In this document: piece after piece, positions 9,263 to 27,356 of the stretch
How the letters are laid out: every line of letters starts with the position of its first letter
Numbering within the stretch: position 1 is the first letter of the stretch
Source of the DNA: Ignavibacteriota bacterium
GTDB lineage: Bacteria > Bacteroidota > Ignavibacteria > UBA10030 > SZUA-254
Assembly: GCA_963727845.1 (NCBI GenBank)
Contig: CAVSHI010000003.1
Location: 937,913-1,001,912, forward strand
Direction of reading: 5' to 3'
Length of the DNA: 64,000 nucleotides
The notes under the pieces: generated by a model
The model's input: only the letters and a program-made list of their open reading frames with translations
Told to the model about the DNA's origin: nothing
The model's database searches: none
Position numbers and translations under genes: made by a program

Positions 9263-9928
9263 TTACAGGGGAACGTTGCAGTAACTCCATTTCCATTTTG
9301 TCCACTCTTGGACCATTCCAGCTTTAACCGGATTGTTGAGAACGTATTCGATAATCCGTCCGAGATCCCCGTCGTTGCGAACGACATGGTCATAACTTTC
9401 GTGCTGCCAAAAGATGCCGGAACGATACAGTATTTTGTTGGCTTCGTGCGCCGTGAACTTCTTCAAGGATCCAATGATGTCGGTGACAATGTAGCGCGAG
9501 ACGCCGTCTCGCGCAGGTAGCGATTCAGCGAATCGCTCTACGCTGAAAACCATGTGGACATGATTGGGCATAATACAATATGCAAGAAGTTCGTACGCCA
9601 TCTGATCTCTATATTTGATGGCAGCGGACACAAGTCCGGCGATGCGGTCATCACGCAGCCAGAATTGACCTTCAGCCGACGTATCCAAGAACCGATCAAA
9701 ATTTTCGAAATACTGTTTACGCGCTTCCTCGCGCGCCAGATTCCTTTCACTATCGTCGCGCATGTGAGCGATTTGCCTTTCCAGACCCAGGTGTTCTTTC
9801 TTCAGTTGCAATACGACATAATCAGGAAGTGATCCTGCGAGCCGGAATGTCACAAAGAATGTTCCCCGTAATGGCTGGTAGTGGGGTAATCGACAACGGT
9901 AATATATTAATTCGTCTCCCATGGTCAA
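9263..9928 (-). mobile_element. REP-associated tyrosine transposase (RAYT, IS200/IS605 TnpA-like Y1 HuH transposase)
   Basis: HuH motif (MPNHVHMVF) and C-terminal catalytic-Tyr region (IFWQHESYDHVVRNDGD…YVLNNPVKAGMV) matching the RAYT signature W-Q-x-x-(F/Y)-(W/Y)-D-H-x-I-R…NP-x-K-A-G. Flanked by REP copies. Confidence 0.8.
9519..9537. repeat. REP palindrome copy 3 (AGCGATTCAGCGAATCGCT), located inside the RAYT coding sequence
   Basis: Encodes …SVERFAESLP… in the RAYT frame. Preceded by a second 10-bp palindrome GCGCGAGACG-c-CGTCTCGCGC at 9495-9515. Confidence 0.75.
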
Positions 9929-13314: not shown

Positions 13315-14460
13315 ATGAAAACGCTTGTCATCGGTGCCGGGATGATGGGAAGCGCGATGGCCTATGACCTCTCTCATTCGGAAAGCGTAACCGAAGTGCT
13401 CGTGGCCGACGTAAGCTACGAGAGGGCGGAAGCTGTCGCACTGTCGCTGGGCGACAACGTTCATCCATTGAAACTTGATATTCATTACTATGACGACGTG
13501 ATGTACGTGATGAGCACTGTGGATGTTGCTTTCGGCGCGACGTCGTACACGCACAACCATCTGCTGGCAAGAGCTGCGATTGAAGCGGGGGTTCATTTCT
13601 GCGATCTCGGGGGAAACATGGACGTTGTCGACCGACAGCTTTTGCTTGATCCCCGGGCGAAGGAGGCCGGTGTTTGCATCATCCCGAACTGCGGCCTTGC
13701 CCCCGGGATGGCCTGCGTCATCGCTGCCGGCGCCGCAAAGAAGTTTGAGCATGTCGATGAAATTCACATTCGGGTCGGCGGGCTTCCCCAGCATCCGCAG
13801 CCGCCGCTGAATTACCAGCTCGTCTTTTCCGCGGAAGGGCTCATCAACGAGTATCTTGAGCCGGCGGAAGCGATCCGGGACGGGAAAATTCAGAAGCTCG
13901 AATCGATGACGGAATGCGAAAAACTTGAATTCCCGCCGCCGTTCGGAAAACTGGAGGCATTCAACACGTCCGGTGGTATATCGACATTGACCAGAATGTT
14001 TGAGGGAAAGGTGAGAGACGTCGATTACAAAACCATCCGGTATCCGGGACATTGCGAGAAATTCAAAACGCTCCTGGACCTCGGATTCGCAAGTGCGGAG
14101 CCCATCATGGTCGGGAATTCCACCTCAACCGTACGGGAATTCTTCGAGAACCTTTTACGCAAGAAGCTCGCCTCAAACGGTCCCGATGTCGTGCTCATGC
14201 GCGTTACTGTCACCGGCACCATGGACGGCCGAAAGAGGACACTTGCGTATGAGTTGATAGATTATTATGATACAAATCTGAAGATGACATCCATGATGCG
14301 AACAACGGCCTTTCCAACATCAATCATCGGGCAGATGGTCGTGAACGGCACAATTTCAGTGCACGGCGTTTGTCCGCCGGAGCAGTGCGTACCGCTGGAG
14401 CCATTCCTGGCTGAATTATCCAAAAGAAATATCATTTTGAAAGAATCACTCGCAGGATGA
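13315..14460 (+). CDS. saccharopine dehydrogenase-family NAD(P) oxidoreductase (Lys1 / carboxy(nor)spermidine dehydrogenase-like)
   Basis: N-terminal Rossmann GxGxxG (MKTLVIGAGMMGSAMAYDL). Length and layout as in the Sacchrp_dh family. Confidence 0.7.
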   Translation: MKTLVIGAGMMGSAMAYDLSHSESVTEVLVADVSYERAEAVALSLGDNVHPLKLDIHYYDDVMYVMSTVDVAFGATSYTHNHLLARAAIEAGVHFCDLGGNMDVVDRQLLLDPRAKEAGVCIIPNCGLAPGMACVIAAGAAKKFEHVDEIHIRVGGLPQHPQPPLNYQLVFSAEGLINEYLEPAEAIRDGKIQKLESMTECEKLEFPPPFGKLEAFNTSGGISTLTRMFEGKVRDVDYKTIRYPGHCEKFKTLLDLGFASAEPIMVGNSTSTVREFFENLLRKKLASNGPDVVLMRVTVTGTMDGRKRTLAYELIDYYDTNLKMTSMMRTTAFPTSIIGQMVVNGTISVHGVCPPEQCVPLEPFLAELSKRNIILKESLAG

Positions 14461-14619
14461 ATCTATGAAGCGTCCACTATCGGTCATTATTATTTCGAAA
14501 GACCCCCATACCCTGCAGGAAACTCACAGCCGCTTCGACGCGCAGACGAGTTTCCCACGGTTGAGACTCCTTTCGATCTTTCTGAAAGCTTTCTTCTCAA
14601 AAAACATTTAGAGCACGCC

Positions 14620-15117
14620 ATGCCAGACACAAGTTCTTTTGACATCGTTTCGAAGGTCGATTTGCAGGAAGTCGACAACGCAATCAACCAGGCACGAAAG
14701 GAAATCGCGCAGCGGTACGACTTCAAAGGCTCAAAGACTTCCATCGAGCTGATACAGAAGGAGCATGAAGTCGTCATCCTGTCTGACGATGATTTTCGCA
14801 TGAAGGCGACCGTCGACCTTCTTCAATCGAAGTTCGTGAAACGCGGCGTTCCGCTGAAGGCGTTCACCTATGGTAAGATCGAACCGGCCGCCGGCAGCCT
14901 CGTCCGGCAGACAATCAAACTGCAGAACGGCATTGACAAGGAAAACGCCAGGCTGATCGTCAAGATGATCAAAGACACGAAGCTGCGGGTGCAGGCACAG
15001 ATCATGGACGACCAGGTGCGCGTCAGCGGCAAGAACAAGGACGACCTTCAGGCCGTGATTGCGATGCTGCGCAAAGCAGACCTCAATTTCTCGATGCAAT
15101 ATATTAACTACCGTTAA
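14620..15117 (+). CDS. yajQ: YajQ-family nucleotide-binding protein (UPF0234)
   Basis: 165-aa [41 protein letters not shown]… typical of YajQ. Confidence 0.85.
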
Positions 15118-15124
15118 GCTGAGA

Positions 15125-15820
15125 ATGAGGATTCGACTCCTTCTCGCCGTTCAACTTTTCATCGCTTCAACGGCTTTCTGTCAATATTCCATCCCCGTCC
15201 AGTTCCCGAACCAGCCTTCGCGCAACGCGCAGGTTGCAACATTCCTTCGGGGGAAAACGCTCTACGGCGCTCTGAACGACCTTCTTTCATGCCTTCACAT
15301 CCAGAGTGCTTCTCGCTCCGGGACCAGGCAAGTGCAATTCAAGACAAATAACTGCACGGTGATGGTGACCGCAACCAGTCCGTACGTCGCGATCACCGAC
15401 AGGGATTCCAATATCAGCTCCATACAACTGCCGCAGGACGTTCTGTTCGGAGCAAGCCAGATTTTTGTTCCACTTGAATCGTTCGTTCCCGTTCTCGGTA
15501 CCGTCACCGGAAGGAACATCATATTCAAGTCTGGCGAAAAACGGATCGTGGTGGAAGATGCTGCGGCAGCGTCACCGTACGACATTACCGGACTGAGCGT
15601 GGAGGAAAAGAGCAATGGCGCTCTTGTGCGTATCCGATGCACGAAGACCCTCAAAGACTATGAAAGCTGGGTGAAACCGGAAGCTCGTGAAACGTGGCTC
15701 TACGTAACGATTGCCAACGCAAAAGCGGATACAACCGCCATTACAGCCACGAGGCCATCCGGCATCATGAAACAAATCATCGTGTTTCAATCGCCGACGT
15801 TCCGTCCAGTTCACCGTTAA
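15125..15820 (+). CDS. N-acetylmuramoyl-L-alanine amidase, N-terminal targeting domain portion (frame 2) of a probably single frameshifted amiC-like gene
   Basis: Signal peptide MRIRLLLAVQLFIASTAFCQ at ATG 15125. The ORF ends at 15820 while the catalytic-domain frame is already open from 15771. Confidence 0.6.
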   Translation: MRIRLLLAVQLFIASTAFCQYSIPVQFPNQPSRNAQVATFLRGKTLYGALNDLLSCLHIQSASRSGTRQVQFKTNNCTVMVTATSPYVAITDRDSNISSIQLPQDVLFGASQIFVPLESFVPVLGTVTGRNIIFKSGEKRIVVEDAAAASPYDITGLSVEEKSNGALVRIRCTKTLKDYESWVKPEARETWLYVTIANAKADTTAITATRPSGIMKQIIVFQSPTFRPVHR

Positions 15821-16688
15821 GCTGAAGGGAAAGTTCACGAGCACCGAGCCGTCATCGGCAGAAGGCTCAAACGACATCCTCATCGCGCTCCCGACACCAC
15901 CCCCAGAAAAGAACGACGATGTCGAGCGGTCGTTGGACCGAGAACGGAGCAAGTGGAAACTCGATTGCATCGTCATTGATGCGGGGCACGGCGGCGACGA
16001 CCCGGGAACTATCGGCGTCGCGCGAACAAAAGAGAAAGACATAACGCTCGCCATCGCGCTTAAACTCGGCAAGTTGATTGAGAAGAGCCTTCCGCAGACG
16101 AGAGTCGTCTACACGCGAAAAACCGATGAATTTATTGAATTATACCGCCGCGGCCAGATCGCAAACGAAGCCCAGGGAAAACTCTTTATCAGCATCCACT
16201 GCAACTCCGCCCCCCGGAAACCGGCTCCGGCACATGGGTTCGAAATCTATCTCCTGCGTCCAGGAAAAACAGAGAACGCTGTTCGCATTGCGGAACGGGA
16301 AAACGATGTCGTCAAACTTGAGAAAAATTACGAGCAGCGTTATCAGGAATTGAATGAAGAGCGTTTCATTCTCGTCACCATGGCACAGAGCGCCTACGTC
16401 AAGTACAGCGAACAATTTGCCGGAATCGTTCAGCAGGAAATGGGAAAGTATCTCAAGCAGGAGAATAACGGCGTGAAGCAAGCCGGGTTCTACGTGCTCG
16501 TTGGCGCATCAATGCCGAATGTGCTCATCGAGACCGGATATCTCTCCAACCGGAAAGAGGAACAGGTACTAAAGAGCGCGAAGGGGCAACAGCACATCGC
16601 CGAAGCGATCTTCAACGCGGTGAAGCGGTACAAGCAGGGATACGAGAAATCTCTGGAGGAGGGTAAGGACATTGGGACGCCGGATTGA
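15771..16688 (+). CDS. N-acetylmuramoyl-L-alanine amidase catalytic domain (Amidase_3) portion; first in-frame start is TTG 15933
   Basis: Amidase_3 hallmarks (CIVIDAGHGGDDPGTIG, …FISIHCNSA…, …VLIETGYLSN…). Protein-like Pro/Glu linker (VQFTVKLKGKFTSTEPSS…LPTPPPEKNDD) in the same frame upstream of the first start codon. Confidence 0.7.
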   Translation, partial: NKSSCFNRRRSVQFTVKLKGKFTSTEPSSAEGSNDILIALPTPPPEKNDDVERSLDRERSKWKLDCIVIDAGHGGDDPGTIGVARTKEKDITLAIALKLGKLIEKSLPQTRVVYTRKTDEFIELYRRGQIANEAQGKLFISIHCNSAPRKPAPAHGFEIYLLRPGKTENAVRIAERENDVVKLEKNYEQRYQELNEERFILVTMAQSAYVKYSEQFAGIVQQEMGKYLKQENNGVKQAGFYVLVGASMPNVLIETGYLSNRKEEQVLKSAKGQQHIAEAIFNAVKRYKQGYEKSLEEGKDIGTPD

Positions 16689-16903
16689 TTAACCTTTCTT
16701 GATGCTGCCACAACGAAAACTGCCTATCCTGCACAAGCCTAGCGGTAACCCCCCAATAATATAATGATGGGAACGTTGTGGTGCAGCATGTTGCCTACTG
16801 TCTGCACCGAAACAAGCCAACCAGTCTGAAAACAGGTTCTTCAGAAAATGCGGCCAGCGTGAGTGATGTTCCTTCACGCCTGAGATTCCTCTTAGCGAAG
16901 ACC

Positions 16904-17062
16904 TCATATATGTACAGCAATCTTCAGGACAACATTTCGCGGTTCTTCCCAGCTTGCTCCAGTAGTGTTTGCACCTTTGATGAGATGTGTGTGATCTAAT
17001 AAATTGGTAACATATTTGGACGGTTCGAAAGTGCTCCCTCCCTCAACCTCAAGAAATGTTTT
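16904..17062 (-). pseudogene. orphan 3'-terminal fragment of a TonB-dependent receptor paralogue
   Basis: Translation …GGSTFEPSKYVTNLLDHTHLIKGANTTGASWEEPRNVVLKIAVHI* is ~85% identical to the C-terminus of the TBDR at 17813..20302; the DNA is ~87% identical over ~190 bp (16873-17062 vs 17787-17975). Confidence 0.7.
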
Positions 17063-17708
17063 TTCCCCCTTTTTCCAGACATTCAGCGCCTTCCCGGTAA
17101 GAAAAATAAGCAATCACAACTGAGCCGACAGCATCAACATATCCAATGTTCGTAATCTGATATATCAGGCTCGCAATCAATAGTGTCAGGGACATTTGGA
17201 TGCAGACTTTTGTACAGTTGCCGTCTGCAATGATCGGTCGAGAATTCAGATCCCTCCCAACACGAAGTTTCGCCACCATCAAACCCATCATCATGAGTAT
17301 TGATAGAAGAGAGATGATGAGGCCTGGAACGGTTGTCTCTGGCTTATGATTGGTCACCGCTGCCACGATTGCACTGAACGCCAATGTCAAAGACAGAACA
17401 TAGAATGAAACACCAGTGACCTTCAAGGCGAATTGTTCAAAGTCATCTCTCACCACGTTATTGTTGTTTCGAATTCTCGTTATCAGGTGAGCAATTCCAA
17501 CTGCAGAGGCTGTTTCAATAAGGCTATCAATGCCGAAACCGAACAGCGTCAGGGTTTGGTCGGCATATCCAAAATAGAGCGAAAATATGGCTTCAAGCAA
17601 ACATGAAATGATCGTCAAAATACTCAAGCCGAAAGCAATCTTGTAGAGCTGTCTTTTCTCCATAGTACGGTGTCCTCTAATAATAACTCGCCCTCTGTTC
17701 GTTGCCAA
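17049..17708 (-). CDS. cation-diffusion-facilitator-like membrane protein (TMD only, degenerate metal-site motifs), AT-rich
   Basis: ~6 TM helices. CDF-like FGxxxDSLxE (FGFGIDSLIETASAV) and xIADGNCT in place of the DxxxH/HxxxD sites. GC visibly lower than surroundings. Probable start at MEKRQLYK (17663). Confidence 0.45.
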   Translation of the reverse strand: MATNRGRVIIRGHRTMEKRQLYKIAFGLSILTIISCLLEAIFSLYFGYADQTLTLFGFGIDSLIETASAVGIAHLITRIRNNNNVVRDDFEQFALKVTGVSFYVLSLTLAFSAIVAAVTNHKPETTVPGLIISLLSILMMMGLMVAKLRVGRDLNSRPIIADGNCTKVCIQMSLTLLIASLIYQITNIGYVDAVGSVVIAYFSYREGAECLEKGGKNIS

Positions 17709-17812
17709 ATGTCTGTATGATGGCTGAAAGCAGGTAAAGGTTGTACGGAATCACCTTCGCACCAGGAATCCGAGCTGCTCCCTCAAGCGTGAGATTCCTC
17801 TTCGCGAAGATT

Positions 17813-20302
17813 TCATATATGCAAGGCAATCTTCAAGACAACATTCCGCGGTTCTTCCCAGCTCGCTCCTGTGGTGTAAGCACCTTTGATTAGATGTATG
17901 TGATCCAATAGATTGGTAACATATATGGACGGTTCGAAAGAACTTCCTCCCTCGAGATGGAAGGTATGCCCTGCGCTAAAATTGAATATCCAATATGGAG
18001 TTGTATGTGCTGCCTGATTGAAATCGAACAATCCTGTTTTGTAGATGGAAACGTCCTCCGGGTGGCCGTTAGAAAGTCCGGATCCATACGTCACCTCGGG
18101 ATTGATATACCAATCTTGGGGCTGGTAGTTGATGGCAGCCACAATCGAAAGCCTTTGATCATGATCAAGGTCGGTTGCCGATCCGTCAGTGCTCGGGGGC
18201 AAGAAGCCCCCTGTCAGAGGACCCGAACCAACAGCATGAATGATTGAAGAGTTCAGGTGGCCCGAGAATGGGGTTGTCGGATCGCTATAGGAGAGTGAAC
18301 ACTCGATCCCGGTTGTCTTTACAGTGGCAATATTGAACGGGGTTTTGATTGCAGTATTACCGATTTGTGCATCATCCGTAAATGGACTGGCATACTTGAA
18401 GAAGGCCGCCGTTTTGAACCGGAGATTAACTGGAAAACTGTGGGTGTAGACGGCCTCATAGTAGGAGTCGCGCTCTGGAAATGTTGCTGTGACTGAGTTG
18501 CTTACACGTTGAGCTATCGATCTAAGTGCTTCAATATTTGTAGGCATGAAGAGCCTGCCGTAATACAGGTACGCTGAACTGTATTCATCTATGAGGAAAT
18601 TCCACCGGATTCTGGGGCTGACCTGTCGCTGGAGCGGAACCACTGGAGCGATATGTTGATCATAGCGGGTACCCAGATCGAACGAGGTCCAGTCGAGAGG
18701 ATGCCATTTAGTCTCCACGAAAATCCCACAATCTGAACCAGTGAAGTTGCTGAGGATTGATGGACCGGGGTTTTGCAAAGAATCACGAGATGTGAAATTC
18801 TCGGCCCCGCTGGTGCTACTAAGGTTGAATCCAACCTTATACATGAACTGGTGAGAAAGCCTCTCGTCGAACGTCGAGCGGATACCGAGCGTGGTAAAAC
18901 TTCTGTCCTCGAAGAGATTATAGTTTGTCGAATCTCCGGCAAATTGGAAGTTCGGTGGATCAATATCGCCAGGAGTATAGATCAAGTTACCTTCGCGCGT
19001 ATACGCTCCCATGAACAGGTTTTCCTCTTGACCGGGTTGTGAATTCATTTCACGGAAATAAGAAATTGCTTGCAATGAATTAGTTGTTGCCTGCACATCG
19101 GAAGTAATTTGCACCGTGGGATCGTAAGGAACTTGTGTGGAGGTTCTTCCAAAACTCAGATTTGCCGTTATGTAATCGATATCGCTAAGGATATAATCGA
19201 ACTTGCCGTAGAGAAAATAATCGAACCCATGGTCGTGAAACAGATTTGGCACGGGGGTGTCTATGCGACGATCTGTTTCCTGACGCGAGGCGGATGCATA
19301 ATATCCCAATTTGCCAAGGTGATCACTAATCGACAAAGCCTCGCCGTCTGAATTAAGTGCTCTGAAAGGGCCGACGCGACCGCCGAGTGTGTCACCTGGG
19401 ATAGCCGATGACGGGCCGGATGCGACTTCGGTTCCAGCCGAAAGGGGTTTGGTTCCATTGAACACAAGATAACTCCCCACATATGTCGAAGCATCGAGAT
19501 GAAATGTTCCTGTCGGGACACGGTTATTCAGGTCGATGATGGCAGACATCTGGCCACCGTACTCAGCGGGGAATCCTCCCGTGATGAAAGTTGCACGGTC
19601 TATGACTTTCGGATCGACAACTTCATTTAATCCCCCAAATACGCCCAGCGGAACCGGAATACCATCGATATAATACGTGAATTCTCCGTGTTGTCCCCGG
19701 ATATGGACTTCACTTGTAGGCGCCCGTGCTGCCCCCGTGAGGTTTTGCTGAATCAAGTTTGTCATTTGAGCCGTCGGCGGTGGGTGATAGGTTTCTGATT
19801 CAAAGGTTTGATTGCCAGTACTGACATTGATATTCGAAACGCCAGGTTCACGATGGCCGACCACTTCAACGCCCTGAAGTTGACTATCCTTTGGCCGGAG
19901 GTTAATTGTGCAGGTTGTGTGATCCTGATTTATCAGAACGGAATCCGTGTAAATCTCATAGCCGACGAACCAGGCGGTCAGCGTGTAAAAGCCTGGTTGT
20001 ATATTGCGAATCCAAACTTGTCCTGCCGTATTGGTTGCATCCTCAGCAACGACTTTTTTCCCATGCTGCAATACCACTCGTGCAAGGCCGATGGGGACTT
20101 TTTCATTAGCATCATAAACTGATATCCTGAAATCTATGCCCTCTTTGCCTTGTGGAGTGGAAATTGTCCGCTCTGCATGTGCGAAAGAGGTAATCCACAT
20201 AAACAGACATAATAGCATCATAGAGGAAATTCTTTGATGTACCATCTCTATAATTTGTCGCATAAATGCCATAGATCGTGTTCGCCTTTTTTCGAACATC
20301 AT
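17813..20302 (-). CDS. TonB-dependent outer-membrane receptor (CarboxypepD_reg-like N-domain + plug + beta-barrel)
   Basis: 829 aa. Signal peptide, then carboxypeptidase-regulatory-like segment (FRISVYDANEKVPIGLARVVL…GFYTLTAWFVGYEIY), plug-like region and long barrel. Start overlaps the stop of the upstream gene (ATGA at 20299-20302). Confidence 0.75.
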   Translation of the reverse strand: MMFEKRRTRSMAFMRQIIEMVHQRISSMMLLCLFMWITSFAHAERTISTPQGKEGIDFRISVYDANEKVPIGLARVVLQHGKKVVAEDATNTAGQVWIRNIQPGFYTLTAWFVGYEIYTDSVLINQDHTTCTINLRPKDSQLQGVEVVGHREPGVSNINVSTGNQTFESETYHPPPTAQMTNLIQQNLTGAARAPTSEVHIRGQHGEFTYYIDGIPVPLGVFGGLNEVVDPKVIDRATFITGGFPAEYGGQMSAIIDLNNRVPTGTFHLDASTYVGSYLVFNGTKPLSAGTEVASGPSSAIPGDTLGGRVGPFRALNSDGEALSISDHLGKLGYYASASRQETDRRIDTPVPNLFHDHGFDYFLYGKFDYILSDIDYITANLSFGRTSTQVPYDPTVQITSDVQATTNSLQAISYFREMNSQPGQEENLFMGAYTREGNLIYTPGDIDPPNFQFAGDSTNYNLFEDRSFTTLGIRSTFDERLSHQFMYKVGFNLSSTSGAENFTSRDSLQNPGPSILSNFTGSDCGIFVETKWHPLDWTSFDLGTRYDQHIAPVVPLQRQVSPRIRWNFLIDEYSSAYLYYGRLFMPTNIEALRSIAQRVSNSVTATFPERDSYYEAVYTHSFPVNLRFKTAAFFKYASPFTDDAQIGNTAIKTPFNIATVKTTGIECSLSYSDPTTPFSGHLNSSIIHAVGSGPLTGGFLPPSTDGSATDLDHDQRLSIVAAINYQPQDWYINPEVTYGSGLSNGHPEDVSIYKTGLFDFNQAAHTTPYWIFNFSAGHTFHLEGGSSFEPSIYVTNLLDHIHLIKGAYTTGASWEEPRNVVLKIALHI

Positions 20303-20817
20303 TGGAAGCCAAACAGTATGCCCGCAGATGCTCCCAAAGACTGCGAGGATCTCTCGCCAAACGTGGAGCTATAACCTGGCTCTATATACCAGCCCACGTT
20401 CGTTTTTGGCCAGCACATGAAGTCGAGAACGATTTCCATATCATAGGAGGTTGTACGATCGTTCCCACCAAATTTGTGAACCACTTCAGGCCCAAGGCCG
20501 AACATAAACTCCGCAGTGTGAGATAGTCGATATGGTTTCTTGAACAGAAGGTCAATTCCAACTTCGGTGTGATCCGAAGTTTGGAGTGCGGTTACGCCGC
20601 TTTCCAACTCGAGCCAATTTTCTATCGGTGTTACCTCGACCGCAAACGTGCCGCCGAATTGAAATGAAGATTCATTAAGATCCCATTCTCCTGCCGGTCC
20701 AATCTCGAGAACCAGACCATGATCCTTGTCGACATCCTCTTGAGCGAGGACAGAGCACGCGGAGCATTGAAGAACGCCAACGACGAGAATCATCCACAAT
20801 CTTACTTTACATCGCAT
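20299..20817 (-). CDS. small secreted hypothetical protein, first gene of the TBDR operon
   Basis: 172 aa with a signal peptide (MILVVGVLQCSACSVLAQ). Preceded by the DtxR/MntR-type operator and promoter. Confidence 0.6.
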   Translation of the reverse strand: MRCKVRLWMILVVGVLQCSACSVLAQEDVDKDHGLVLEIGPAGEWDLNESSFQFGGTFAVEVTPIENWLELESGVTALQTSDHTEVGIDLLFKKPYRLSHTAEFMFGLGPEVVHKFGGNDRTTSYDMEIVLDFMCWPKTNVGWYIEPGYSSTFGERSSQSLGASAGILFGFQ

Positions 20818-20844
20818 AGGTCTATTACAACGTTTTCATCATAT

Positions 20845-20887
20845 TTTAGGTATACCTAAATATAAGTTTTGGTGCACTGAAATGCAA
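20845..20887 (-). promoter_or_regulatory. sigma70-like promoter (-35 TTGCAT at 20882-20887, 17-nt spacer, -10 TATATT at 20859-20864) overlapped by perfect 16-bp palindrome TTTAGGTATACCTAAA (20845-20860)
   Basis: Palindrome resembles DtxR/MntR-family operators. The whole ~45-nt module is near-identical to the one upstream of mntR at 23738-23780. Confidence 0.6.
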
Positions 20888-21181
20888 GTCGGCTCGGACA
20901 TGGCCGCGCACACCGGGTGATCATTCGTCAATTGAACGAGGGGAAGAATTAATAGATCGGCAAGCTACGCCGGGAGATCAAATATTCACAAAGAATCGAC
21001 CCAAGAAGGGGAGCAGTCCAATTTTCATGATTCCTAAAATAACAATTGGATCAGTTTTACATCTAGGCACAGATAAAGACTCTGATCGCGATGATCTGAG
21101 AACAGAGTGGTGCCCAAATCAAGACCCGCGCCGGAGCAAACGCGAGATCCGGGTCTCCATGTCAACCAATGTGGAAGTCTT

Positions 21182-21598
21182 CTACTTCGCTTTGAGAAGA
21201 AGCACGGGCACGCTTATGTGGTGCCGGACTTTTGTGACCGTTGTCCCGAGAAACAGGTCGGCTACCAAACGGTGGCCGTGTGTGCTCATCGCTAGGAGAT
21301 CGCATCCCTCTTTCTGAATCCATTTGACAATTTCCTGGGCCGGTTCGCCGTAAGCCAATTCTGCTTCCGCCGGAATATTCTCTGAGCGGAATTCTGATTT
21401 CACTTTTTCCAAGTACGCCTTGTCCTCAACTACCTCCGGGCTGACGGCGTCGCGACCGAATATGCGAGCCGCCCAGCCATCGGCGACATGCAACAACACC
21501 ACCCGGCTTTGCATGAATCGGGCGAGTTGTTTGACGTGTTCGATGATCGCCCTGTCGGTGGGAGTGCCGTCCAGGGTTACAAGAATCGTTTTATACAT
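21182..21598 (-). CDS. universal stress protein (UspA family)
   Basis: 138-aa Usp fold (MYKTILVTLDGTP…VLLHV…GCDLLAMSTHGH…VPVLLL); last gene of the mntR-mntH-usp cluster. Confidence 0.75.
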   Translation of the reverse strand: MYKTILVTLDGTPTDRAIIEHVKQLARFMQSRVVLLHVADGWAARIFGRDAVSPEVVEDKAYLEKVKSEFRSENIPAEAELAYGEPAQEIVKWIQKEGCDLLAMSTHGHRLVADLFLGTTVTKVRHHISVPVLLLKAK

Positions 21599-21626
21599 GC
21601 CTGTTTCCTGTTTGCTGAGAAAAACC

Positions 21627-23045
21627 TCATCCGCCGATGATGACCCGCCACGCTTCCTTCAGTGACTCTGGAAGACTGTAGAGATCCATGACAGTTATGA
21701 GCAGGGCGCTTCCCCATCCCAATATAATCAGAAACCAGCCACTTGTCCACTTTCCCATTATCTTACGGGATGAAGCGAAATACAACAGGGGAAACATCGC
21801 AAAAGGCAATATGAGGCAGAGAATGACCTGACTGAGATTGACCAAATCCGTCACGCTGCCGCCTCCGCGGACACTGATGATCAGAATTGCCGGAACCACC
21901 GCAAGCGTCCGCGAGATCATCCTTCGCAGCCACGGACGGATACGCCAATTCATGAAGCCTTCCATCACGACCTGTCCGGCCAGCGTGCCGGTAATCGTGC
22001 TGCTTTGTCCACTGGCAAGCAATGCCACAGCAAAGAGCGTGCTCGCGAAGGTAGTACCGAGCAGCGGGGCCAATGTCAGGTGAGCTATACGGATCCAATC
22101 GCTGTCGGGGCTGAACATCACCACCTGCCCCCCCGCCACCGTTACACTATTCTTGCCGTAAAAAACCATCGCCGCCAGCACGAGGATCGCGGCGTTGACC
22201 ACGAACGCAACGGCCAGCGCGACGGAGGAATCAATGGTATTGAACCGAATCGCGTTACGAATCGAACGGTCATCGCGCTGGAACTTCCGCGTCTGAACAA
22301 GAGCAGAGTGAAGGAACAGGTTATGAGGCATGACGGTGGCGCCGATCATCCCGATAGCTATTACGAGCATGCCTGTTTGCCGAAAGCTGGGTTGAAGCAG
22401 CGCCTGACCCATCTCCAGAAAACTTGGTTGTGTCTGCGGGAGGATGAATATCTCGATGGCATAGCAGACGCCGATCGTAGCCACGAACACCGTGACAACG
22501 GCTTCAATCATCCGCATGCCAAATCCTTGCAAAGCAAGCAAGAGCAGAACATCGGCTGCGGTGATAACGATCGCCCAGGCAATGGGAATATGAAACAAGA
22601 GATTCAAAGCAACCGCACTGCCCAGCGCTTCGGCCAGATCCGTCGCACCAATGGCGATTTCCATAGAGATCCAGTTGGGCCAGCGGCTCCATTTCGGAAG
22701 ATAATCGCGGCAACACTGGGCAAGATCCTTCCCGGTGGCTACGCCCAAACGGGCTGAGATCACCTGAAGGATGACTGCCATGAAGCTTGCCAGTGCGATA
22801 ACCCACAGCAGGGCATATTTGAACTGTGCTCCCCCGGTGAGATCCGTTCCCCAATTGCCGGGATCCATGTAACCAACACTCACCAGCACTGCCGGCCCCA
22901 CAAACGCACGCCAGTTTTGCCAGAAACCGGCCTCGTTGTTCGGCACCGCCACCGTGTTGTGCATCCCCTCCAATGAAGGATGAGCGCGTGATTCCGGATT
23001 CTCAGGCGTCATGTTCTCTTCCGGCGACAATGGTTTTTTAAACAA
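21627..23045 (-). CDS. mntH: NRAMP-family divalent metal (Mn2+/Fe2+) transporter MntH
   Basis: NRAMP signature (GYMDPGNWGTDLTGGAQFKY) and ~11 TM helices. Overlaps the mntR stop by 8 nt. Confidence 0.85.
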   Translation of the reverse strand: MFKKPLSPEENMTPENPESRAHPSLEGMHNTVAVPNNEAGFWQNWRAFVGPAVLVSVGYMDPGNWGTDLTGGAQFKYALLWVIALASFMAVILQVISARLGVATGKDLAQCCRDYLPKWSRWPNWISMEIAIGATDLAEALGSAVALNLLFHIPIAWAIVITAADVLLLLALQGFGMRMIEAVVTVFVATIGVCYAIEIFILPQTQPSFLEMGQALLQPSFRQTGMLVIAIGMIGATVMPHNLFLHSALVQTRKFQRDDRSIRNAIRFNTIDSSVALAVAFVVNAAILVLAAMVFYGKNSVTVAGGQVVMFSPDSDWIRIAHLTLAPLLGTTFASTLFAVALLASGQSSTITGTLAGQVVMEGFMNWRIRPWLRRMISRTLAVVPAILIISVRGGGSVTDLVNLSQVILCLILPFAMFPLLYFASSRKIMGKWTSGWFLIILGWGSALLITVMDLYSLPESLKEAWRVIIGG

Positions 23046-23718
23046 CCTCTATAAAAATACTCTTTGCAAGCAGGGGGCTCAGCGGGATTTCTTTTCTCCC
23101 CACAATGACGATGACGGAGCCGTCAAACTTTATTTTCTGCTTGACCCGGACTTTCTTGTTCAGACCCAGGCCGAGCTTCGTGAGAAGCTGCAGGGCTTCC
23201 TGGCTTTCATCGCTGACGCGCACGATGATGCCGACGTCGTGAGCATCGCACTGGGAGAGCCGCCGATACGTGATTTTCTTGAGCACTCCATCGGCTGTCG
23301 GGATAGGATCTCCGTGGGGATCGACCTTGGGGTGGCCGAGTGCTTTATCGAGCCTGATCTCCATTTCATCAGACGTCACATGTTCGAGAAGCTCGGCCTC
23401 GTCATGAATTTCGTCCCACGTGTAGCAGAGAAATTTAACAAGAAACATTTCCCACAGGCGGTGCCGCCGCACCATTTTGAGCGCCACACGCCGTCCGGCT
23501 TCCGTGAGCGTTACACCCTGGTATGGCTCGTAATTGATAAGCTGTTTTTCCGAGAGTTTCTTGACCATGTCGGTGACGGAGCCGTCGCCGATCTTCAGGT
23601 GCTTTGCCAGGACTGATGTCGGGACGACCTGTTCGCCCGCCTTCGAAGTGTGTTCTGCAGCAAGGCGAATCTGTAGATGGTAAATGCTTTTGAGGTAATC
23701 TTCCGTTGATTGGTTCAT
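23038..23718 (-). CDS. mntR: DtxR/MntR-family metal-dependent transcriptional repressor with C-terminal FeoA/SH3-like domain
   Basis: N-terminal wHTH (MNQSTEDYLKSIYHLQ…SVLAKHLKIGDGSVTDMVKKL), metal-binding/dimerisation region (…HRLWEMFL…DEIHDEAELLEH…) and C-terminal FeoA-like domain. Confidence 0.8.
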   Translation of the reverse strand: MNQSTEDYLKSIYHLQIRLAAEHTSKAGEQVVPTSVLAKHLKIGDGSVTDMVKKLSEKQLINYEPYQGVTLTEAGRRVALKMVRRHRLWEMFLVKFLCYTWDEIHDEAELLEHVTSDEMEIRLDKALGHPKVDPHGDPIPTADGVLKKITYRRLSQCDAHDVGIIVRVSDESQEALQLLTKLGLGLNKKVRVKQKIKFDGSVIVIVGRKEIPLSPLLAKSIFIEVV

Positions 23719-23737
23719 TTTAGCGCATGTAATCTAT

Positions 23738-23780
23738 TTTAGGCATGCCTAAATATAGGTTTTGGTGTACGAAAATGCAA
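23738..23780 (-). promoter_or_regulatory. mntR promoter (-10 TATATT 23752-23757, -35 TTGCAT 23775-23780) overlapped by perfect 16-bp palindrome TTTAGGCATGCCTAAA (23738-23753)
   Basis: Same architecture and spacing as the module at 20845-20887; probable autoregulatory operator. Confidence 0.6.
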
Positions 23781-23847
23781 GTTGGCAGGGGACTGGGCCC
23801 TTACTGATGGGGGACTGGAGAAGGTTTTGCAACGTCCGGTGCTATGG

Positions 23848-23925
23848 CTTTCGAAACCCTCACCCTGTCACTCAGTGACATCCCTCTCCCATTTATGGGA
23901 GAGGGAGCGAGGGTGAGGGTTACAA
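23848..23925. repeat. nested triple-palindrome element (outer CCCTCACCCT/AGGGTGAGGG, inner GTCACTcAGTGAC, and CCCTCTCCCA-ttta-TGGGAGAGGG)
   Basis: Read directly: aaaCCCTCACCCTGTCACTCAGTGACATCCCTCTCCCATTTATGGGAGAGGGAGCGAGGGTGAGGGttac, in the intergenic region between marC and mntR. Confidence 0.6.
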
Positions 23926-24061
23926 TGACATTTGAGAAATCTCGAGATGTCTGGCAGTACGCATTGGATTACTTGGGGTTATTGTTTCAGGCGGCAGAGG
24001 CATCCAGGTGAGAATGAAGTTTTCCATCGATCAGTGAAACGTCGACCTAGCCCGCCTGCTC

Positions 24062-24739
24062 CTAACCCTGCCAGAAGCTCCGCTCCAGCACCAAATCCCG
24101 CACGCCATTGATCATGAATTGAATTCCAATACAGACGAGAAGGAACCCCATTATACGCGATAGACTATTGACGCCATTTACGCCCAGATAGCGGCGCAAG
24201 GCCGTCGCCCCGCGAAGGACCAACCACGAGATAATCGCGGTGATTATGATTGCCAAGACTACTCCGACAAAGCCTAGTATTTTATCCATCCCCCTCCATC
24301 CCGCGATAGATGATGACATCGTAATGACAACAGCGATGGATCCTGGTCCGCTCAAGCTCGGCATCGCGAGAGGGCTGAATGAAATATCTTGTTTCTTCCC
24401 CGCCTCCTCTTTACCCTCCTCAGTCAGCGGACCGCCGTCCGGAAACAACATGCGGAACCCGAGATATCCAATGACCATTCCACCTGCTATACGTATGCCC
24501 GGTACGGAGATACCGAATCCGACAATGATAAAGTGACCGGCGAAAAGGAACGCGAGCAGGATTGCCGTCATGTACATGCACGCCCGCGTGACCTGTCGAT
24601 TGCGTTCCTTCTCATCGATATGCGCGCTTATACTGAGAAGAAGGACGGCCGTGCCCACGGGGTTGATAATGGGGAGAAGGGTTACAAGCGTCACGCCGAT
24701 CCAGGAAAGAAATCCGCCAAAGCTATTCATCGCGCACAT
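24062..24739 (-). CDS. marC: MarC-family integral membrane protein (UPF0056)
   Basis: 225 aa with 6 TM helices and conserved MarC-type segments (LLPIINPVG…, GPGSIAVVI…). Start possibly at MNSFGG (24730). Confidence 0.7.
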   Translation of the reverse strand: MCAMNSFGGFLSWIGVTLVTLLPIINPVGTAVLLLSISAHIDEKERNRQVTRACMYMTAILLAFLFAGHFIIVGFGISVPGIRIAGGMVIGYLGFRMLFPDGGPLTEEGKEEAGKKQDISFSPLAMPSLSGPGSIAVVITMSSSIAGWRGMDKILGFVGVVLAIIITAIISWLVLRGATALRRYLGVNGVNSLSRIMGFLLVCIGIQFMINGVRDLVLERSFWQG

Positions 24740-24968
24740 CTCCCCACGCGAGAAGCCGTGACCACAAGATCAACTCCATCACACAGATCGATCAAGACCC
24801 AAGGATTTCCTCGTCCGTGAAGTACCTGATTTCCAACAGATAAACAAACTGTTAACGCTCGGCACCATTTCATATCAGCATACCACCTCTCTTCCTGATC
24901 TATTGAATTGAGAGCAATCCACGACCCAATATACAAAAATACCAACTAGATCCCTTTTCGGCACCAGG

Positions 24969-27356
24969 TCATCGATTGATCCGACATACCATCGAGTTCA
25001 TTCCACCATGAAGCGCGTGCCGCGAACTATCCGGCAGAATTGCCATAGCTTCAACTGCCGCAGGAACAGTCGCCGAAAGTTGAAATTCCTTCTTTGTGCG
25101 AGTCCATTTCACGATGATTTTTCCTGCCGGACTGTCGAAAGATGCCGATGCTTTCTTCATATCGCCCGGCTGCGGCGCTATGAGAATCTTGTGCCAGCCA
25201 ACACTTCCTGGCTGCTGGCGAATACCGGCAACGTACGCGAACTGCCACTCCATAAGTTGTCCGAGCATAAAATGGTTCATGCTATTTCCCGTCCCGGGTT
25301 TCGCCTCCCAGCTTTCGGGGAGCGTCGTGAGACCAAGCTTTACCATATATCCATAGCTTCCAACTCCTTCCCGGCTGTACACTTTGTGCAGGACGTCTCC
25401 GCGACCGCCTTCTGCCAGCGCCCGTATCAGGAAAACATGGAGCACTTCGCCGGTGGTTTGCTGCCATCCCCGCCGCTGCAGATCATCGACGATCGCTTGC
25501 AACGCTCCCTCGCGGTCTTCGTCGGGCACGAGTCCCATGCACAGAGCGGTCGCATTCCCCGCCTGACAGGAGCCGCCGTTCTTCACCGTCTTTGTTTGTG
25601 GATCGTAGAAATTTCGCTGAAAGTCCTTCTTCACCTGGCTGTACAGACTGTCGTAATGGTTGGAATCTTCCCGCCGATTCAAGACTCTAGCGGCGTTGGC
25701 TACCGTTCTGGCACCGAGCGCCCAGACCGCCGTTGCCGAAACCTGCGTTGGCGTCCATTGGGACGGCCCGTCTCCTTTTCCGTGTCCGTAGTCGTACCAG
25801 TCGCCGAGGTTGCTTGCGATCACTCCATCTTTCGCCTGGCTTGAAAGGTAATCGACGTACCGCTTCATGCTTTCGAACGAAACTGCCAGGGTGCTTGTGT
25901 CTCCGTACCATTCATACAACTGCCAGGGGACGAGAACTCCGGAAATTCCCCACTCGGGAGCTTCGTTCCAATAACCATGCGGGGGAATGCCGACCAGGTA
26001 ATTCGGACAGTTGGTTGGAATGTGGCCGTCGGGTAGTTGCGTATCTCGTACGTCGTGCATGATCTTGCGATACCAGTCACGTACGTCAAAAAGATACGCG
26101 ATCGCTCTCGCCATGTGCCAGTTTTCTTCCTGCCAGCCGTTCTTCTCGCGGTGGGGACAGTCGGTCGCGACGTGACTCATGTTCGACCGTATTGACCAAT
26201 CGATCAACCGGTGAGCGGCATTCTGCAATGTACTGGAACATTCGAATGAGCCGACCCGCCGGTTGGCAGCGCGAATATGGACGAGTTCCAGTTTCCCTAT
26301 GACCGGCAGTTTTTCCGGATTCGGATACCCGGCGGGAACGGCGCCCGTCACTCCGACATACTGGCCGCCGACATAACAGAAAAGTATCTGATGAGACTCA
26401 TCTTTGGCGCCGGACAATGTATAATCGTGCCAGATATCCTTGTTTGTTCCCCATGTGTACGTGAAACGGACGCGGCCGGTGGAGTCGATATATTCACAGG
26501 GTTTGAAGCGGATGCGGCTTCCCGATTTGCCGGTAACGGTAAACCGCAGGAGCGCGGAACAATTCTGCGGGAAGATATAGGTGTATTCTCCAGAACCAAT
26601 CTTTACAATCTTTATATTTTTGAATACTTCAAATTCTTTGACCGCCGGGCCGGGCAGTGGGACCAGTTTGCCCTCTGGGGCAGGGAAAGTGGCTGCATGG
26701 TTCCAATTTTCATCGTCGAATCCCGGTTTGTCCCAGCCAATTGGATTGAGGCGCGCATCGTAATCCTCGCCGGCGTAGATGTGCGAGAAAGTGAGCGGGC
26801 CCGGAGTCCATTTCCACAACGAGTCGCTGACAATCACCGTATCGACACCGGATGCCAATCGTATGCGAGCTTCAAGCCACAGGAGGTACGGATGACCGTT
26901 GGAAAAATCAGGCATTGCATCGGTTTTGGAGTAGCGGCCTGAATCGTTCGGTGGACCGACGCGCCAGAAGGAATTTCCGAGCATCACACCAAAAACATTT
27001 TCGCCCTTTGACAGCAAACGGGAGACATCGAATTCCTGAGTGTAGAGTGTTTTGTTGTATTCAGACCAGGCCTGGTTTATCACAGACTCCCCGACTTGCC
27101 TGCCGTTGAGTCGAAGCTGGTAATGACCCAGTCCGACAATGCGGATGGTGCCTTTTAGCGGCTTCTCTTTCAGTAAAAACCGTGAGCGCAGGATCGGGCA
27201 GGGCTGTTGATCCGCCGCGCGACCATCAATTGAAGGGCCGATCCATTGAGGAGTTATATCGGTCCCTCCAGATTGGGGGGCCGGGACTTGTGAGAGGATG
27301 GAACCGCAAGTACATACGATGAGAGATGCAGCGAGTAGTAATTGTTTGATGTGCAT
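24969..27356 (-). CDS. alpha-L-rhamnosidase, glycoside hydrolase family 78
   Basis: GH78 catalytic hallmark TDCPHREKNGWQEE…, plus NLGDWYDY and six-hairpin-domain segments. Signal peptide MHIKQLLLAASLIVCTCGS from ATG at 27356; the track ORF extends spuriously to 27539. Confidence 0.8.
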   Translation of the reverse strand: MHIKQLLLAASLIVCTCGSILSQVPAPQSGGTDITPQWIGPSIDGRAADQQPCPILRSRFLLKEKPLKGTIRIVGLGHYQLRLNGRQVGESVINQAWSEYNKTLYTQEFDVSRLLSKGENVFGVMLGNSFWRVGPPNDSGRYSKTDAMPDFSNGHPYLLWLEARIRLASGVDTVIVSDSLWKWTPGPLTFSHIYAGEDYDARLNPIGWDKPGFDDENWNHAATFPAPEGKLVPLPGPAVKEFEVFKNIKIVKIGSGEYTYIFPQNCSALLRFTVTGKSGSRIRFKPCEYIDSTGRVRFTYTWGTNKDIWHDYTLSGAKDESHQILFCYVGGQYVGVTGAVPAGYPNPEKLPVIGKLELVHIRAANRRVGSFECSSTLQNAAHRLIDWSIRSNMSHVATDCPHREKNGWQEENWHMARAIAYLFDVRDWYRKIMHDVRDTQLPDGHIPTNCPNYLVGIPPHGYWNEAPEWGISGVLVPWQLYEWYGDTSTLAVSFESMKRYVDYLSSQAKDGVIASNLGDWYDYGHGKGDGPSQWTPTQVSATAVWALGARTVANAARVLNRREDSNHYDSLYSQVKKDFQRNFYDPQTKTVKNGGSCQAGNATALCMGLVPDEDREGALQAIVDDLQRRGWQQTTGEVLHVFLIRALAEGGRGDVLHKVYSREGVGSYGYMVKLGLTTLPESWEAKPGTGNSMNHFMLGQLMEWQFAYVAGIRQQPGSVGWHKILIAPQPGDMKKASASFDSPAGKIIVKWTRTKKEFQLSATVPAAVEAMAILPDSSRHALHGGMNSMVCRINR

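Follow-up and report, generated by a model that had tools for sequence, protein, structure and literature searches.

Outer-membrane crossing by manganese is known for few bacteria, the cases being MnoP, MnoT, OmpU, and a candidate described from Stenotrophomonas in 2026. The question raised by the present locus is whether a TonB-dependent receptor gene, preceded by a gene for a small signal-peptide protein and by a DtxR/MntR-type operator, specifies another such route, as was proposed in an initial annotation made from the DNA alone. The window analyzed is a 64-kb (64,000-nucleotide) contig segment from a soil-dwelling member of the Ignavibacteria/Kryptonia group.

Operators and Operon Organization

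The two open reading frames of the initial annotation, encoding 172 and 829 residues, are present on the minus strand (20299-20817 and 17813-20302, respectively). Operator O1 (TTAGGTATACCTAA, 20846-20859), a perfect 14-nt palindrome of the DtxR/MntR box type, lies 29 nt 5' of the 172-residue frame. When up to three mismatches are allowed, for which 0.54 matches are expected by chance in 64 kb, O1 has a single further match in the window, i.e. operator O2 (TTAGGCATGCCTAA, 23739-23752), which is located directly 5' (20 nt) of a gene for a DtxR-family metalloregulator (23038-23718, minus strand). The regulator gene is followed on the same strand by those for an NRAMP Mn2+ importer, MntH (21627-23045), and a universal stress protein (Usp, 21182-21598), the final gene of this operon, with a terminator-like hairpin (21125-21146) 3' of it. 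Each operator lies within one copy of a 52-nt direct repeat (20842-20893, minus strand, and 23735-23786; 87% identity), placed identically before the regulator-NRAMP-Usp and the barrel-transporter operons. The proposal of a DtxR-family box common to the receptor genes and the NRAMP operon is thus borne out, with the second copy 5' of the regulator gene. An Rfam scan of positions 14000-26000 returned no riboswitch or other RNA.

The promoter of repeat copy 1 probably comprises a -35 element TTGCAT (20882-20887), a 17-nt spacer, and a -10 element TATATT (20859-20864), in which case O1 would cover the predicted transcription start along with the last part of the -10 element. This promoter is not listed by a consensus promoter scan, because its -35 element fits at only three of six positions.

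O1 scores 26.3 bits with a position weight matrix, for which related loci totalling 1.8 Mb contain only 15 sites of 16 bits or more. A 29-bit site is present upstream of the regulator gene in locus L084, which is independent, having been left out of matrix building. The same box is found 5' of the regulator-NRAMP operon in L007, L008, L010, L012, L020, L036, L048, and L084 (in all of which, L036 apart, the regulator-NRAMP-Usp order is also recorded as kept) and in the intergenic region between divergent regulator and transporter genes in L021, L022, L024, L025, and L086; L016-L018 have a variant form, GTTAGATACATCTAAC. A palindromic operator is therefore present at the promoter, is common to the regulator's own operon, and is kept in orthologous loci. 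An 18-bit matrix match in L019, internal to an unrelated coding sequence, was attributed to chance. In the closest syntenic loci (L007, L008, and L010) no second operator precedes the small-barrel gene, and neither a DtxR gene nor the box is found near three very close transporter orthologues (L009, L011, and L013), which have a different conserved upstream stretch in common.

The Metalloregulator and the NRAMP Importer

The regulator has a C-terminal FeoA/SH3-like domain. Of the NCBIfam models, that for Thermus-type MntR fits it best, reaching 193 of the 350 bits required by the cut-off, and its best Protein Data Bank matches are 5zr4, which we take to be Mycobacterium tuberculosis MntR, 8pvt, ScaR, and SloR, with IdeR and DtxR ranking lower. 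When the regulator is aligned with DtxR chains, the offsets place metal ligands at Asp7, His105, Glu109, Glu112, and His113, with Asp7 and Glu109 aligning with Met10 and Cys102 of DtxR; Asn and Glu occupy these two positions in the regulator orthologues and divergent paralogues. Fe-type DtxR proteins have Met10 and Cys102, whereas Mn-type MntR proteins have Asp or Asn and Glu. By this rule the regulator looks like a Mn-type member of the DtxR family. The NRAMP protein exceeds the cut-off of the equivalog-level MntH model NF001923 (506 versus 430 bits).

The TonB-dependent Transporter

The product of the 829-residue frame is a divergent TonB-dependent transporter, as was first proposed; the basis is family-level Pfam matches and fold. 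The Plug (PF07715) score of the frame itself is weak (19 bits, below the cut-off of 23.9), but among close family members a Plug match is obtained for 31 of 40 (E ≤ 0.01, best 1.9e-5) and a barrel match for 15 of 40. The carboxypeptidase-regulatory-like N-terminal domain of the initial annotation is confirmed, with CarboxypepD_reg scoring 33.3 bits against a cut-off of 32.3 at residues 61-133. The order of elements is signal peptide, CarboxypepD_reg extension, TonB-box-like VEVVG, plug, and 22-strand barrel. The conserved E-V-E-V-V-G stretch (residues 143-149), between the N-terminal extension and the plug, resembles a TonB box and is a candidate for this role, and in 85 paralogues the plug consensus, EVHIRGQHGEFTYYIDGIPVP...GGFPAEYGG, hardly varies. 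The predicted model has 22 strands with long and short connections alternating, as in a 22-stranded barrel; it was used solely for strand count and fold class, its confidence being low (pLDDT 55, about 25 in the plug) because the alignment comprised only sequences of >61% identity, and no metal-binding site can therefore be read from it. A search of the family profile against Protein Data Bank sequences matched no solved TonB-dependent transporter. Clustering with SusC-type glycan importers, which the initial annotation had named as evidence against a metal substrate, is not seen; TIGR04056 scores 15.5 bits, far below its cut-off of 368, there is no SusD neighbor, and SusC-type glycan import was rejected.

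The reported ATGA overlap of the two genes is present in the DNA, but the translational coupling read from it is doubtful. All transporter orthologues start at the position of Met20 (MVHQRISSMMLLCLFMWITSFAHA, a normal signal peptide), their median length is 810 residues, and the public record of the same contig calls the transporter at 819 residues. Translation probably starts at Met20 (position 20245), giving a protein of about 810 residues (17813-20245, minus strand) and a 53-nt spacer after the 172-residue frame. The apparent coupling is then probably an artefact of choosing the longest frame; the two genes are nonetheless likely co-transcribed.

A tree was constructed for 85 paralogues encoded in Ignavibacteriota/Kryptoniota genomes. 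A DtxR-family gene lies within 3 kb in 15 of the 20 members of the clade to which the present transporter belongs, and in 3 of the other 65 (Fisher p = 6e-10). Other clades adjoin ZnuA, ABC-3, ZIP, heavy-metal P-type ATPase, and DUF2946-like genes, so that the whole family looks metal-related. It appears to be confined to Ignavibacteriota, Kryptoniota, and related Bacteroidota, with paralogues attached to different metal regulons and transporters. Two to four paralogues occur in tandem in several genomes (L009, L013, and L063), and no chelate-biosynthesis genes were seen adjoining the paralogue loci. Sixteen candidate His/Asp/Glu ligand positions, including those in TDLDHDQR and FHDHGFD, are constant in all clades, zinc-type contexts included, and only E67, D159, Y335, and E736 are clade-specific. 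The candidate ligand residues being alike in all clades, the assignment of Mn derives entirely from regulation.

A gene for a short CDF-like membrane protein (204 residues, transmembrane domain only; 17049-17663, minus strand) follows that of the transporter. Its product matches Cation_efflux with 35.5 bits over profile positions 2-190 of 198. As the gene recurs in other genomes, both beside the transporter clade and beside the small barrel, it is part of the conserved module; it may be co-transcribed with the transporter here, across a gap of 104 nt. CDF proteins are normally exporters, and its presence is thus a poor fit to a pure uptake model.

The Small Outer-membrane Barrel

The partner had been envisaged as a small accessory secreted protein, a lipocalin or β-barrel fold being raised as a question. 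It is not a soluble secreted protein or a lipocalin but a minimal, 8-stranded integral outer-membrane β-barrel with a signal peptide. Its loops are very short (4-6 residues), it has about ten invariant or near-invariant acidic residues and the motifs LFKKP and DFMxWP, and its lumen-facing positions are mainly invariant Glu/Asp and Gly; the carboxylates of the lumen are E38, E61, E70, E72, D89, E103, D132, and E146. There is no Pfam or NCBIfam match, including to OmpW, OmpA_membrane, OMP_b-brl, and PagL; when 41 family members were compared with named families, only single members matched, with E values of 0.01-0.2, and the family profile gave nothing at E ≤ 10 against Protein Data Bank sequences. 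A PagL/PagP-type lipid A enzyme was considered and rejected, since no His, Ser, or Cys is invariant.

Clustering at 50% identity gives about 1,100 clusters for the family, which lacks a Pfam model and for which no described function was found in the literature. Three different gene orders connect the small barrel with the transporter and regulator, i.e. Usp-barrel-transporter, transporter-barrel (L015), and regulator-barrel divergent from the transporter (L086). On distant Acidobacteria-type contigs it adjoins CarboxypepD_reg transporters, P-type ATPases, NRAMPs, and short CDFs; the survey is noisy, the high-GC metagenome contigs being short and rich in shadow frames, and the counts of metal-transporter neighbors are therefore indicative, with no statistical test attached. 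Many family members stand alone in unrelated contexts.

Proposed Mechanism and Alternatives

The following scheme is suggested by what was observed, namely the set of genes present, the duplicated operators, the protein folds, and the conservation of the neighborhood. The Mn-loaded DtxR-family repressor would bind both near-identical operators, each of which would overlap the -10 element and the start of transcription. The promoter being duplicated, one copy would serve the repressor-NRAMP(MntH)-Usp operon and the other the barrel-transporter operon. When Mn is scarce both operons would be derepressed; the transporter, energized by TonB, would carry Mn, either as free ions or within a small complex, over the outer membrane, and MntH would then move it over the inner membrane. 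The small barrel would be a co-regulated outer-membrane part, most likely a cation-binding or -conducting barrel or a partner of the transporter, as invariant Glu/Asp and Gly predominate in its lumen. The inferred parts of this scheme are the repressing effect of Mn, the substrate and the direction in which it is moved, and the function of the small barrel. Because it has a Mn-type repressor site in common with the NRAMP operon, the transporter is a good candidate for energized outer-membrane Mn uptake, and we assign a probability of about 0.6 to the locus being a Mn-starvation-inducible outer-membrane uptake module. A broader proposal is more speculative and on balance doubtful, i.e. that the locus represents a new two-part outer-membrane Mn route, combining a lineage-specific family of transporters that bind metal ions directly, each paralogue answering to a metal sensor of its own, with a new and widespread family of minimal barrels whose Gly/carboxylate lumen binds or conducts divalent cations, the latter being a general accessory to NRAMP, P-type ATPase, CDF, and TonB-dependent transporters in Acidobacteriota and Ignavibacteriota/Kryptoniota.

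The near identity of the candidate ligand residues across DtxR, ZnuA/ABC-3, ZIP, and P-type ATPase contexts, together with the tandem sets of two to four paralogues, would also be accommodated if all paralogues import the same substrate class, be it any divalent transition metal or one common metal chelate, and differ only in their sensor, such that the present copy is Mn-regulated, not Mn-specific. This is rather unlikely, in that the conserved residues may be structural and not ligands, the clade-specific E67 and E736 exist, and chelate-biosynthesis genes were not seen beside these loci. It is improbable that the signal is Fe2+, as for DtxR/IdeR, with the operon serving uptake of iron (or of a ferrous or ferric chelate) and the NRAMP importing Fe2+/Mn2+. 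The TTAGG...CCTAA half-sites do resemble those of DtxR/IdeR boxes; however, the regulator scores better against Mn sensors than against IdeR and DtxR, has Asp and Glu, not Met and Cys, at the positions distinguishing Fe from Mn, and is encoded with an NRAMP passing the MntH model. Reports which could be taken to favor iron are that a role in iron regulation has been put forward for DtxR-family proteins of other Gram-negative bacteria (PMC12552655), and that the MntR-controlled Stenotrophomonas receptor is induced only by Mn and Fe limitation together (PMC13217887).

With respect to the small barrel, a minority possibility is that it is an outer-membrane stabilizer or a structural protein produced under divalent-cation scarcity, like OprH, which is made under Mg limitation, or is a generic small outer-membrane protein present in the operon by chance. 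Its repeated location beside metal-cation transporters in distant lineages and its independent association with the regulator and transporter in three arrangements argue otherwise, and loops of only 4-6 residues offer little surface for binding lipopolysaccharide. Activation of the operon by the Mn-loaded regulator, which with the CDF-like gene would imply manganese detoxification, can draw on the conservation of that neighbor and on Bacillus subtilis MntR, which activates CDF exporters at high Mn. It is nevertheless highly improbable, as the position and sequence context of the operator are the same as before the NRAMP importer operon, its predicted overlap with the -10 element and start has the geometry of a repressor site, and TonB-dependent transporters are importers.

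Comparison with Known Systems

Mn-regulated TonB-dependent receptors are already known. MnoT of Burkholderia thailandensis is a TonB-dependent outer-membrane Mn transporter which works with TseM, a Mn-binding protein secreted by a type VI system (Si et al. 2017, as summarized in PMC9334652 and PMC13217887). The likeness is in the proposed entry of Mn across the outer membrane through a TonB-dependent receptor when Mn is limiting; by contrast, in a comparison with MnoT as described, no type VI/TseM-like partner was seen here, there is a CarboxypepD_reg extension and an 8-stranded barrel partner, and the type of regulator and the phylum differ. The CQNC-type receptor of Stenotrophomonas maltophilia, a candidate for Mn uptake, is MntR-controlled together with a periplasmic thioredoxin-fold protein (PMC13217887, 2026). 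The bicistronic arrangement of receptor and small partner, the location beside mntR-mntH, and the MntR box in the promoter are alike in both. However, the partner here is an outer-membrane barrel, the box is a 14-nt TTAGG-N4-CCTAA palindrome as opposed to 25 bp in Stenotrophomonas, and the lineage is different; the CQNC motif is absent from the translated transporter, the only Cys residues of which lie outside the plug. Transporters of the ZnuD/OprC/TdfH type, which bind metal ions directly, are also among the closest known systems.

For the small barrel, MnoP, which is controlled by the Fur-family regulator Mur, provides a functional precedent as a β-barrel co-regulated with an NRAMP Mn importer, although the barrel here, compared with MnoP by description, has only eight strands. 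MnoP of Bradyrhizobium japonicum is described as an outer-membrane Mn channel, the expression of which is co-regulated with that of mntH (Hohle et al. 2011, via PMC9334652). The small barrel differs from OmpW, the OmpA N-domain, OprF-N, NspA, OprH, and PagL in having no family match and very short loops, and from PagL/PagP in having no invariant His or Ser for an active site, with acidic residues and LFKKP/DFMxWP instead. Metal-cation transport may be a first functional lead for this sizeable family. The transporter paralogues look like a natural set, in which one scaffold is placed under different metal regulons, and should be useful for studying metal selectivity. Set beside the Stenotrophomonas receptor, and MnoT as described, the locus provides a third, unrelated candidate receptor family, from a poorly studied soil phylum and with clear regulatory wiring.

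Operator, probable promoter and layout of the operon

The minus strand carries a 172-aa ORF (20299..20817) and, after it, a long ORF (17813..20302; 829 aa as its longest reading). A perfect palindrome, TTAGGTATACCTAA, is present at 20846-20859, 29 nt upstream of the first ATG of the 172-aa ORF, and a search of the whole window allowing 3 mismatches, for which 0.54 sites are expected by chance, revealed a sole second site, TTAGGCATGCCTAA, at 23739-23752, 20 nt ahead of the gene for a DtxR-family regulator (23038..23718, minus; assigned by domain matches). The regulator gene is followed on its strand by genes for an NRAMP (21627..23045) and a universal stress protein (Usp, 21182..21598). The proposal in the initial annotation of a DtxR-family box next to an NRAMP operon is thus borne out; the observation of an operator-controlled ORF pair is real and well beyond chance.

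Both palindromes form the core of a 52-nt direct repeat with 87% identity (20842-20893 and 23735-23786). On the minus strand the repeat contains TTGCAT and TATATT, 17 nt apart, with the palindrome beginning at the last base of TATATT; this arrangement is probably a promoter, absent from the list of a consensus promoter scan because its first hexamer matches at only 3/6 positions. The presence of the repeat before both operons, together with a terminator-like hairpin after the Usp gene (21125-21146), indicates that in this genome the small-protein and receptor pair has a promoter/operator of its own, copied from that of the regulator-NRAMP operon or the reverse.

The regulator encoded here has a 10-residue insertion, IRLAAEHTSK (residues about 17-26), between helix 1 and the DNA-binding helix-turn-helix, which is present in none of 16 aligned orthologues/paralogues. 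An IS200/Y1-type transposase-like ORF (9263-9928, minus; 25 bits, just above the cut-off) is located about 7 kb from the operon, among housekeeping genes (ThyX, Ogg, saccharopine dehydrogenase, amidase, alpha-L-rhamnosidase).

Start and class of the receptor

Translational coupling of the two ORFs via ATGA had been proposed; the overlap is present in the DNA, but coupling is unsupported, in that every orthologue begins where the long ORF has Met20 (median length 810 aa), leaving a 53-nt spacer. A Met20 start gives a normal signal peptide (MVHQRISSMMLLCLFMWITSFAHA), and a Met1 start would leave a 27-residue N-region; the public record of this contig has the receptor as 819 aa. The receptor thus likely starts at 20245, 53 nt after the stop codon of the 172-aa ORF, and co-transcription of the two is the simplest reading.

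The evidence for receptor class from the single protein is thin: Pfam gives a CarboxypepD_reg match at the N-terminus (33.3 bits; cut-off 32.3) and only a below-threshold Plug match. The family-level picture is clearer, with Plug matched in 31/40 homologues of 61-86% identity and the TonB-dependent receptor barrel model in 15 of the 40 (best E 2.9e-17), and with a plug consensus that is nearly invariant across 85 receptor paralogues. The AlphaFold model, of low confidence (pLDDT 55), has 22 strands, with long loops alternating with short turns. The assignment as a TonB-dependent receptor with a carboxypeptidase-regulatory-like N-domain is supported by the family-level matches and the fold. Clustering with SusC-type glycan importers, which the initial annotation had held to be incompatible with its proposal, is rejected, since the receptor reaches 15.5 bits with the SusC/RagA model, for which the cut-off is 368, and no SusD gene lies beside it. 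A sequence profile of the receptor family detected none of the solved transporters; the family is a divergent one.

The small barrel and its neighbourhoods

The 172-aa protein had been described as a small accessory secreted protein, with the question whether it is a lipocalin or a beta-barrel partner; it is an integral, 8-stranded outer-membrane barrel rather than a soluble secreted or lipocalin-like protein. Its family is large (>2,000 matches in one search; 1,102 clusters at 50% identity in another), and alignment reveals invariant or nearly invariant acidic residues (E38, E61, E66, E70, E72, E85, D89, E103, D132, E146), K93-K94-P95, many glycines, and the motifs PIENWLELE, DLLFKKP and LDFMxWP. 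From strand alternation, the acidic and glycine positions likely face the lumen and the hydrophobic positions the lipid; if the topology is the one usual for barrels of this kind, the turns with the strongest conservation would be periplasmic. The alignment contains no invariant His, Ser or Cys, which argues against a PagL/PagP-type enzyme. Seven homologues of about 280 aa (P0155, P0163, P0167, P0193, P0203, P0216, P0229) have N-terminal SH3-type domains (PF06347, PF08239) fused to the barrel.

Many members of the family are solitary, in unrelated neighbourhoods; the family is also linked with receptor and regulator, in three distinct arrangements of the genes. In a survey of 83 loci (80 of them soil-metagenome contigs; 55 with a flank of at least 1.5 kb), the neighbours included CarboxypepD_reg TonB-dependent receptors at 7 loci, heavy-metal or type II P-type ATPases at 5, including L006, NRAMPs at 4, short CDF-like proteins at 3 and KdpA at 1; at locus L090 receptor, P-type ATPase and barrel are consecutive. 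These counts, which are not a statistical test, are suggestive of action in cation transport. L006 (10001-13110) is another cation-transport context for the family: its homologue of the small barrel (66% identity) is preceded by a DUF2243 protein, and 68 nt beyond the homologue, in the same orientation, comes a type II P-type cation ATPase (Cation_ATPase_N/C).

The short CDF-like gene

Downstream of the receptor is a gene for a 204-aa CDF-like protein (17049-17663, minus), which matches the cation-efflux family over its transmembrane part (35.5 bits, cut-off 26.6; profile positions 2-190 of 198) and has no cytoplasmic domain. The same short protein lies beside the receptor at L011, L013, L016 and L017, beside the regulator at L015 and beside the small barrel at L120, L147 and L152; its gene is part of the conserved module. 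CDF proteins normally export, hence its role is hard to assign. By eye, the expected transport-site positions are D-x3-E in TM2 (GIDSLIE) and C-x3-C in TM5 (ADGNCTKVC), which would be a thiol-containing site, unusual for a CDF protein.

Directly after the stop of this gene is a relic of a second receptor gene (16904-17050, minus), a 49-aa stretch that matches the C-terminal 49 residues of the 829-aa protein at 84% identity; relic and receptor have a common 45-nt DNA repeat (17000-17044 with 17909-17953). The relic suggests that a tandem paralogue has been lost here; L013 shows the corresponding arrangement, receptor-CDF-receptor.

Conservation of the receptor-regulator link

A scan of species-representative genomes gave 76 loci, nearly all in MAGs labelled Ignavibacteriota, Kryptoniota or Bacteroidota, in which ORFs were called and searched with the window proteins. 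The order regulator-NRAMP-Usp-(small barrel)-receptor is kept in L007/L014, L008, L010, L012, L020, L048 and L084, and a divergently transcribed DtxR-family paralogue adjoins the receptor in L015-L018, L021, L022, L024, L025 and L086. Neighbour-joining of 85 full-length receptor paralogues places the window receptor within a 20-member clade, of which 15 have a DtxR-family gene within 3 kb, versus 3/65 outside it (Fisher p = 6e-10); the proposed link between receptor and DtxR-family regulator therefore recurs across genomes.

In the DtxR-linked loci, the TTAGG-N4-CCTAA box either precedes the regulator operon or lies between the divergent genes, with a variant palindrome, GTTAGATACATCTAAC, in L016-L018. 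With a position matrix built from 14 sites, only 15 sites in 1.8 Mb reach 16 bits or more; among them is an independent 29-bit site upstream of the regulator gene in L084. The window is the only one of the compared loci in which a second operator immediately precedes the small gene. No regulator gene or box lies near three very close orthologues (L009, L011, L013); in place of the box they have a common conserved stretch, TTAGTTATCTGCCATTTGAACCCTTAAGTATAGAG, about 60 nt before the receptor start. Overall, comparative genomics supports the regulatory interpretation well.

The metal signal and the substrate

All three DtxR-family domains are matched in the regulator, the top NCBIfam match of which is the Thermus-type Mn-dependent MntR model (193 bits, below the model cut-off of 350), ahead of the actinobacterial DtxR model (82 bits). 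Among solved structures 5zr4, 8pvt, ScaR and SloR, which we take to be Mn-responsive family members, rank above IdeR and DtxR. Using alignment offsets to DtxR chains, DtxR Met10, His98, Cys102, Glu105 and His106 correspond to Asp7, His105, Glu109, Glu112 and His113. Replacement of Met and Cys by Asp and Glu is a signature of Mn-type MntR versus Fe-type DtxR; in the orthologous regulators, and in a second, more divergent regulator subfamily beside the receptor in other genomes, the two residues are Asn and Glu. With the curated MntH model the NRAMP scores above the cut-off (506 versus 430 bits). The model and structure rankings, the Asp/Glu positions and the MntH-type NRAMP make manganese the most likely signal, with iron a less likely alternative.

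The substrate of the window receptor and the role of the small barrel are matters that we infer. Other receptor clades adjoin ZnuA-type binding proteins, ABC-3 permeases, ZIP transporters, heavy-metal P-type ATPases and a small DUF2946-like Cys/His protein; the whole family thus appears associated with metal-cation transport, and these contexts support a metal as the probable substrate. The main rival to manganese itself is that the paralogues share one binding site and differ mainly in regulation, for which the invariant His/Asp/Glu candidate ligands, the same in all clades, argue. They are H173, H200, H205 and E207 in the plug region, FHDHGFD at 355-361, TDLDHDQR at 710-717, and H268, H328, H550, H689 and H766; E67, D159, Y335 and E736 alone set the DtxR-linked clade apart. 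Such conservation is the main weakness of a 'manganese' label, though the residues may be either ligands or structural.

In the clades without a DtxR link, a protein of about 120 aa with a Cys/His motif and weak DUF2946 similarity (20.7 bits, below the cut-off) is encoded directly upstream of the receptor (L018, L029, L032, L035, L036, L038, L041, L043, L044, L047, L049-L052, L081), often near ZIP, ZnuA/ABC-3 or P-type ATPase genes. It looks like a parallel small-partner-plus-receptor design for another metal.

Comparison with known systems

A search of limited literature found no paper describing the receptor or small-barrel family, which is no evidence that none exists. Two leads are the most valuable: the family of 8-stranded barrels, as yet uncharacterised, and the set of receptor paralogues connected to different metal systems. 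TonB-dependent Mn uptake is characterised in a single case, that of MnoT, which acts in Burkholderia together with the T6SS effector TseM; MnoP (Bradyrhizobium) and OmpU (Vibrio) are outer-membrane routes without energisation (PMC9334652). The window receptor lies outside the CQNC family of Stenotrophomonas maltophilia, in which an MntR-controlled receptor has a thioredoxin-fold partner (PMC13217887): it lacks the CQNC motif, and partner, box and phylum all differ. As in the CQNC-type system, the window operon comprises a receptor and a small partner, is located next to mntR-mntH and has a box for the regulator in its promoter.
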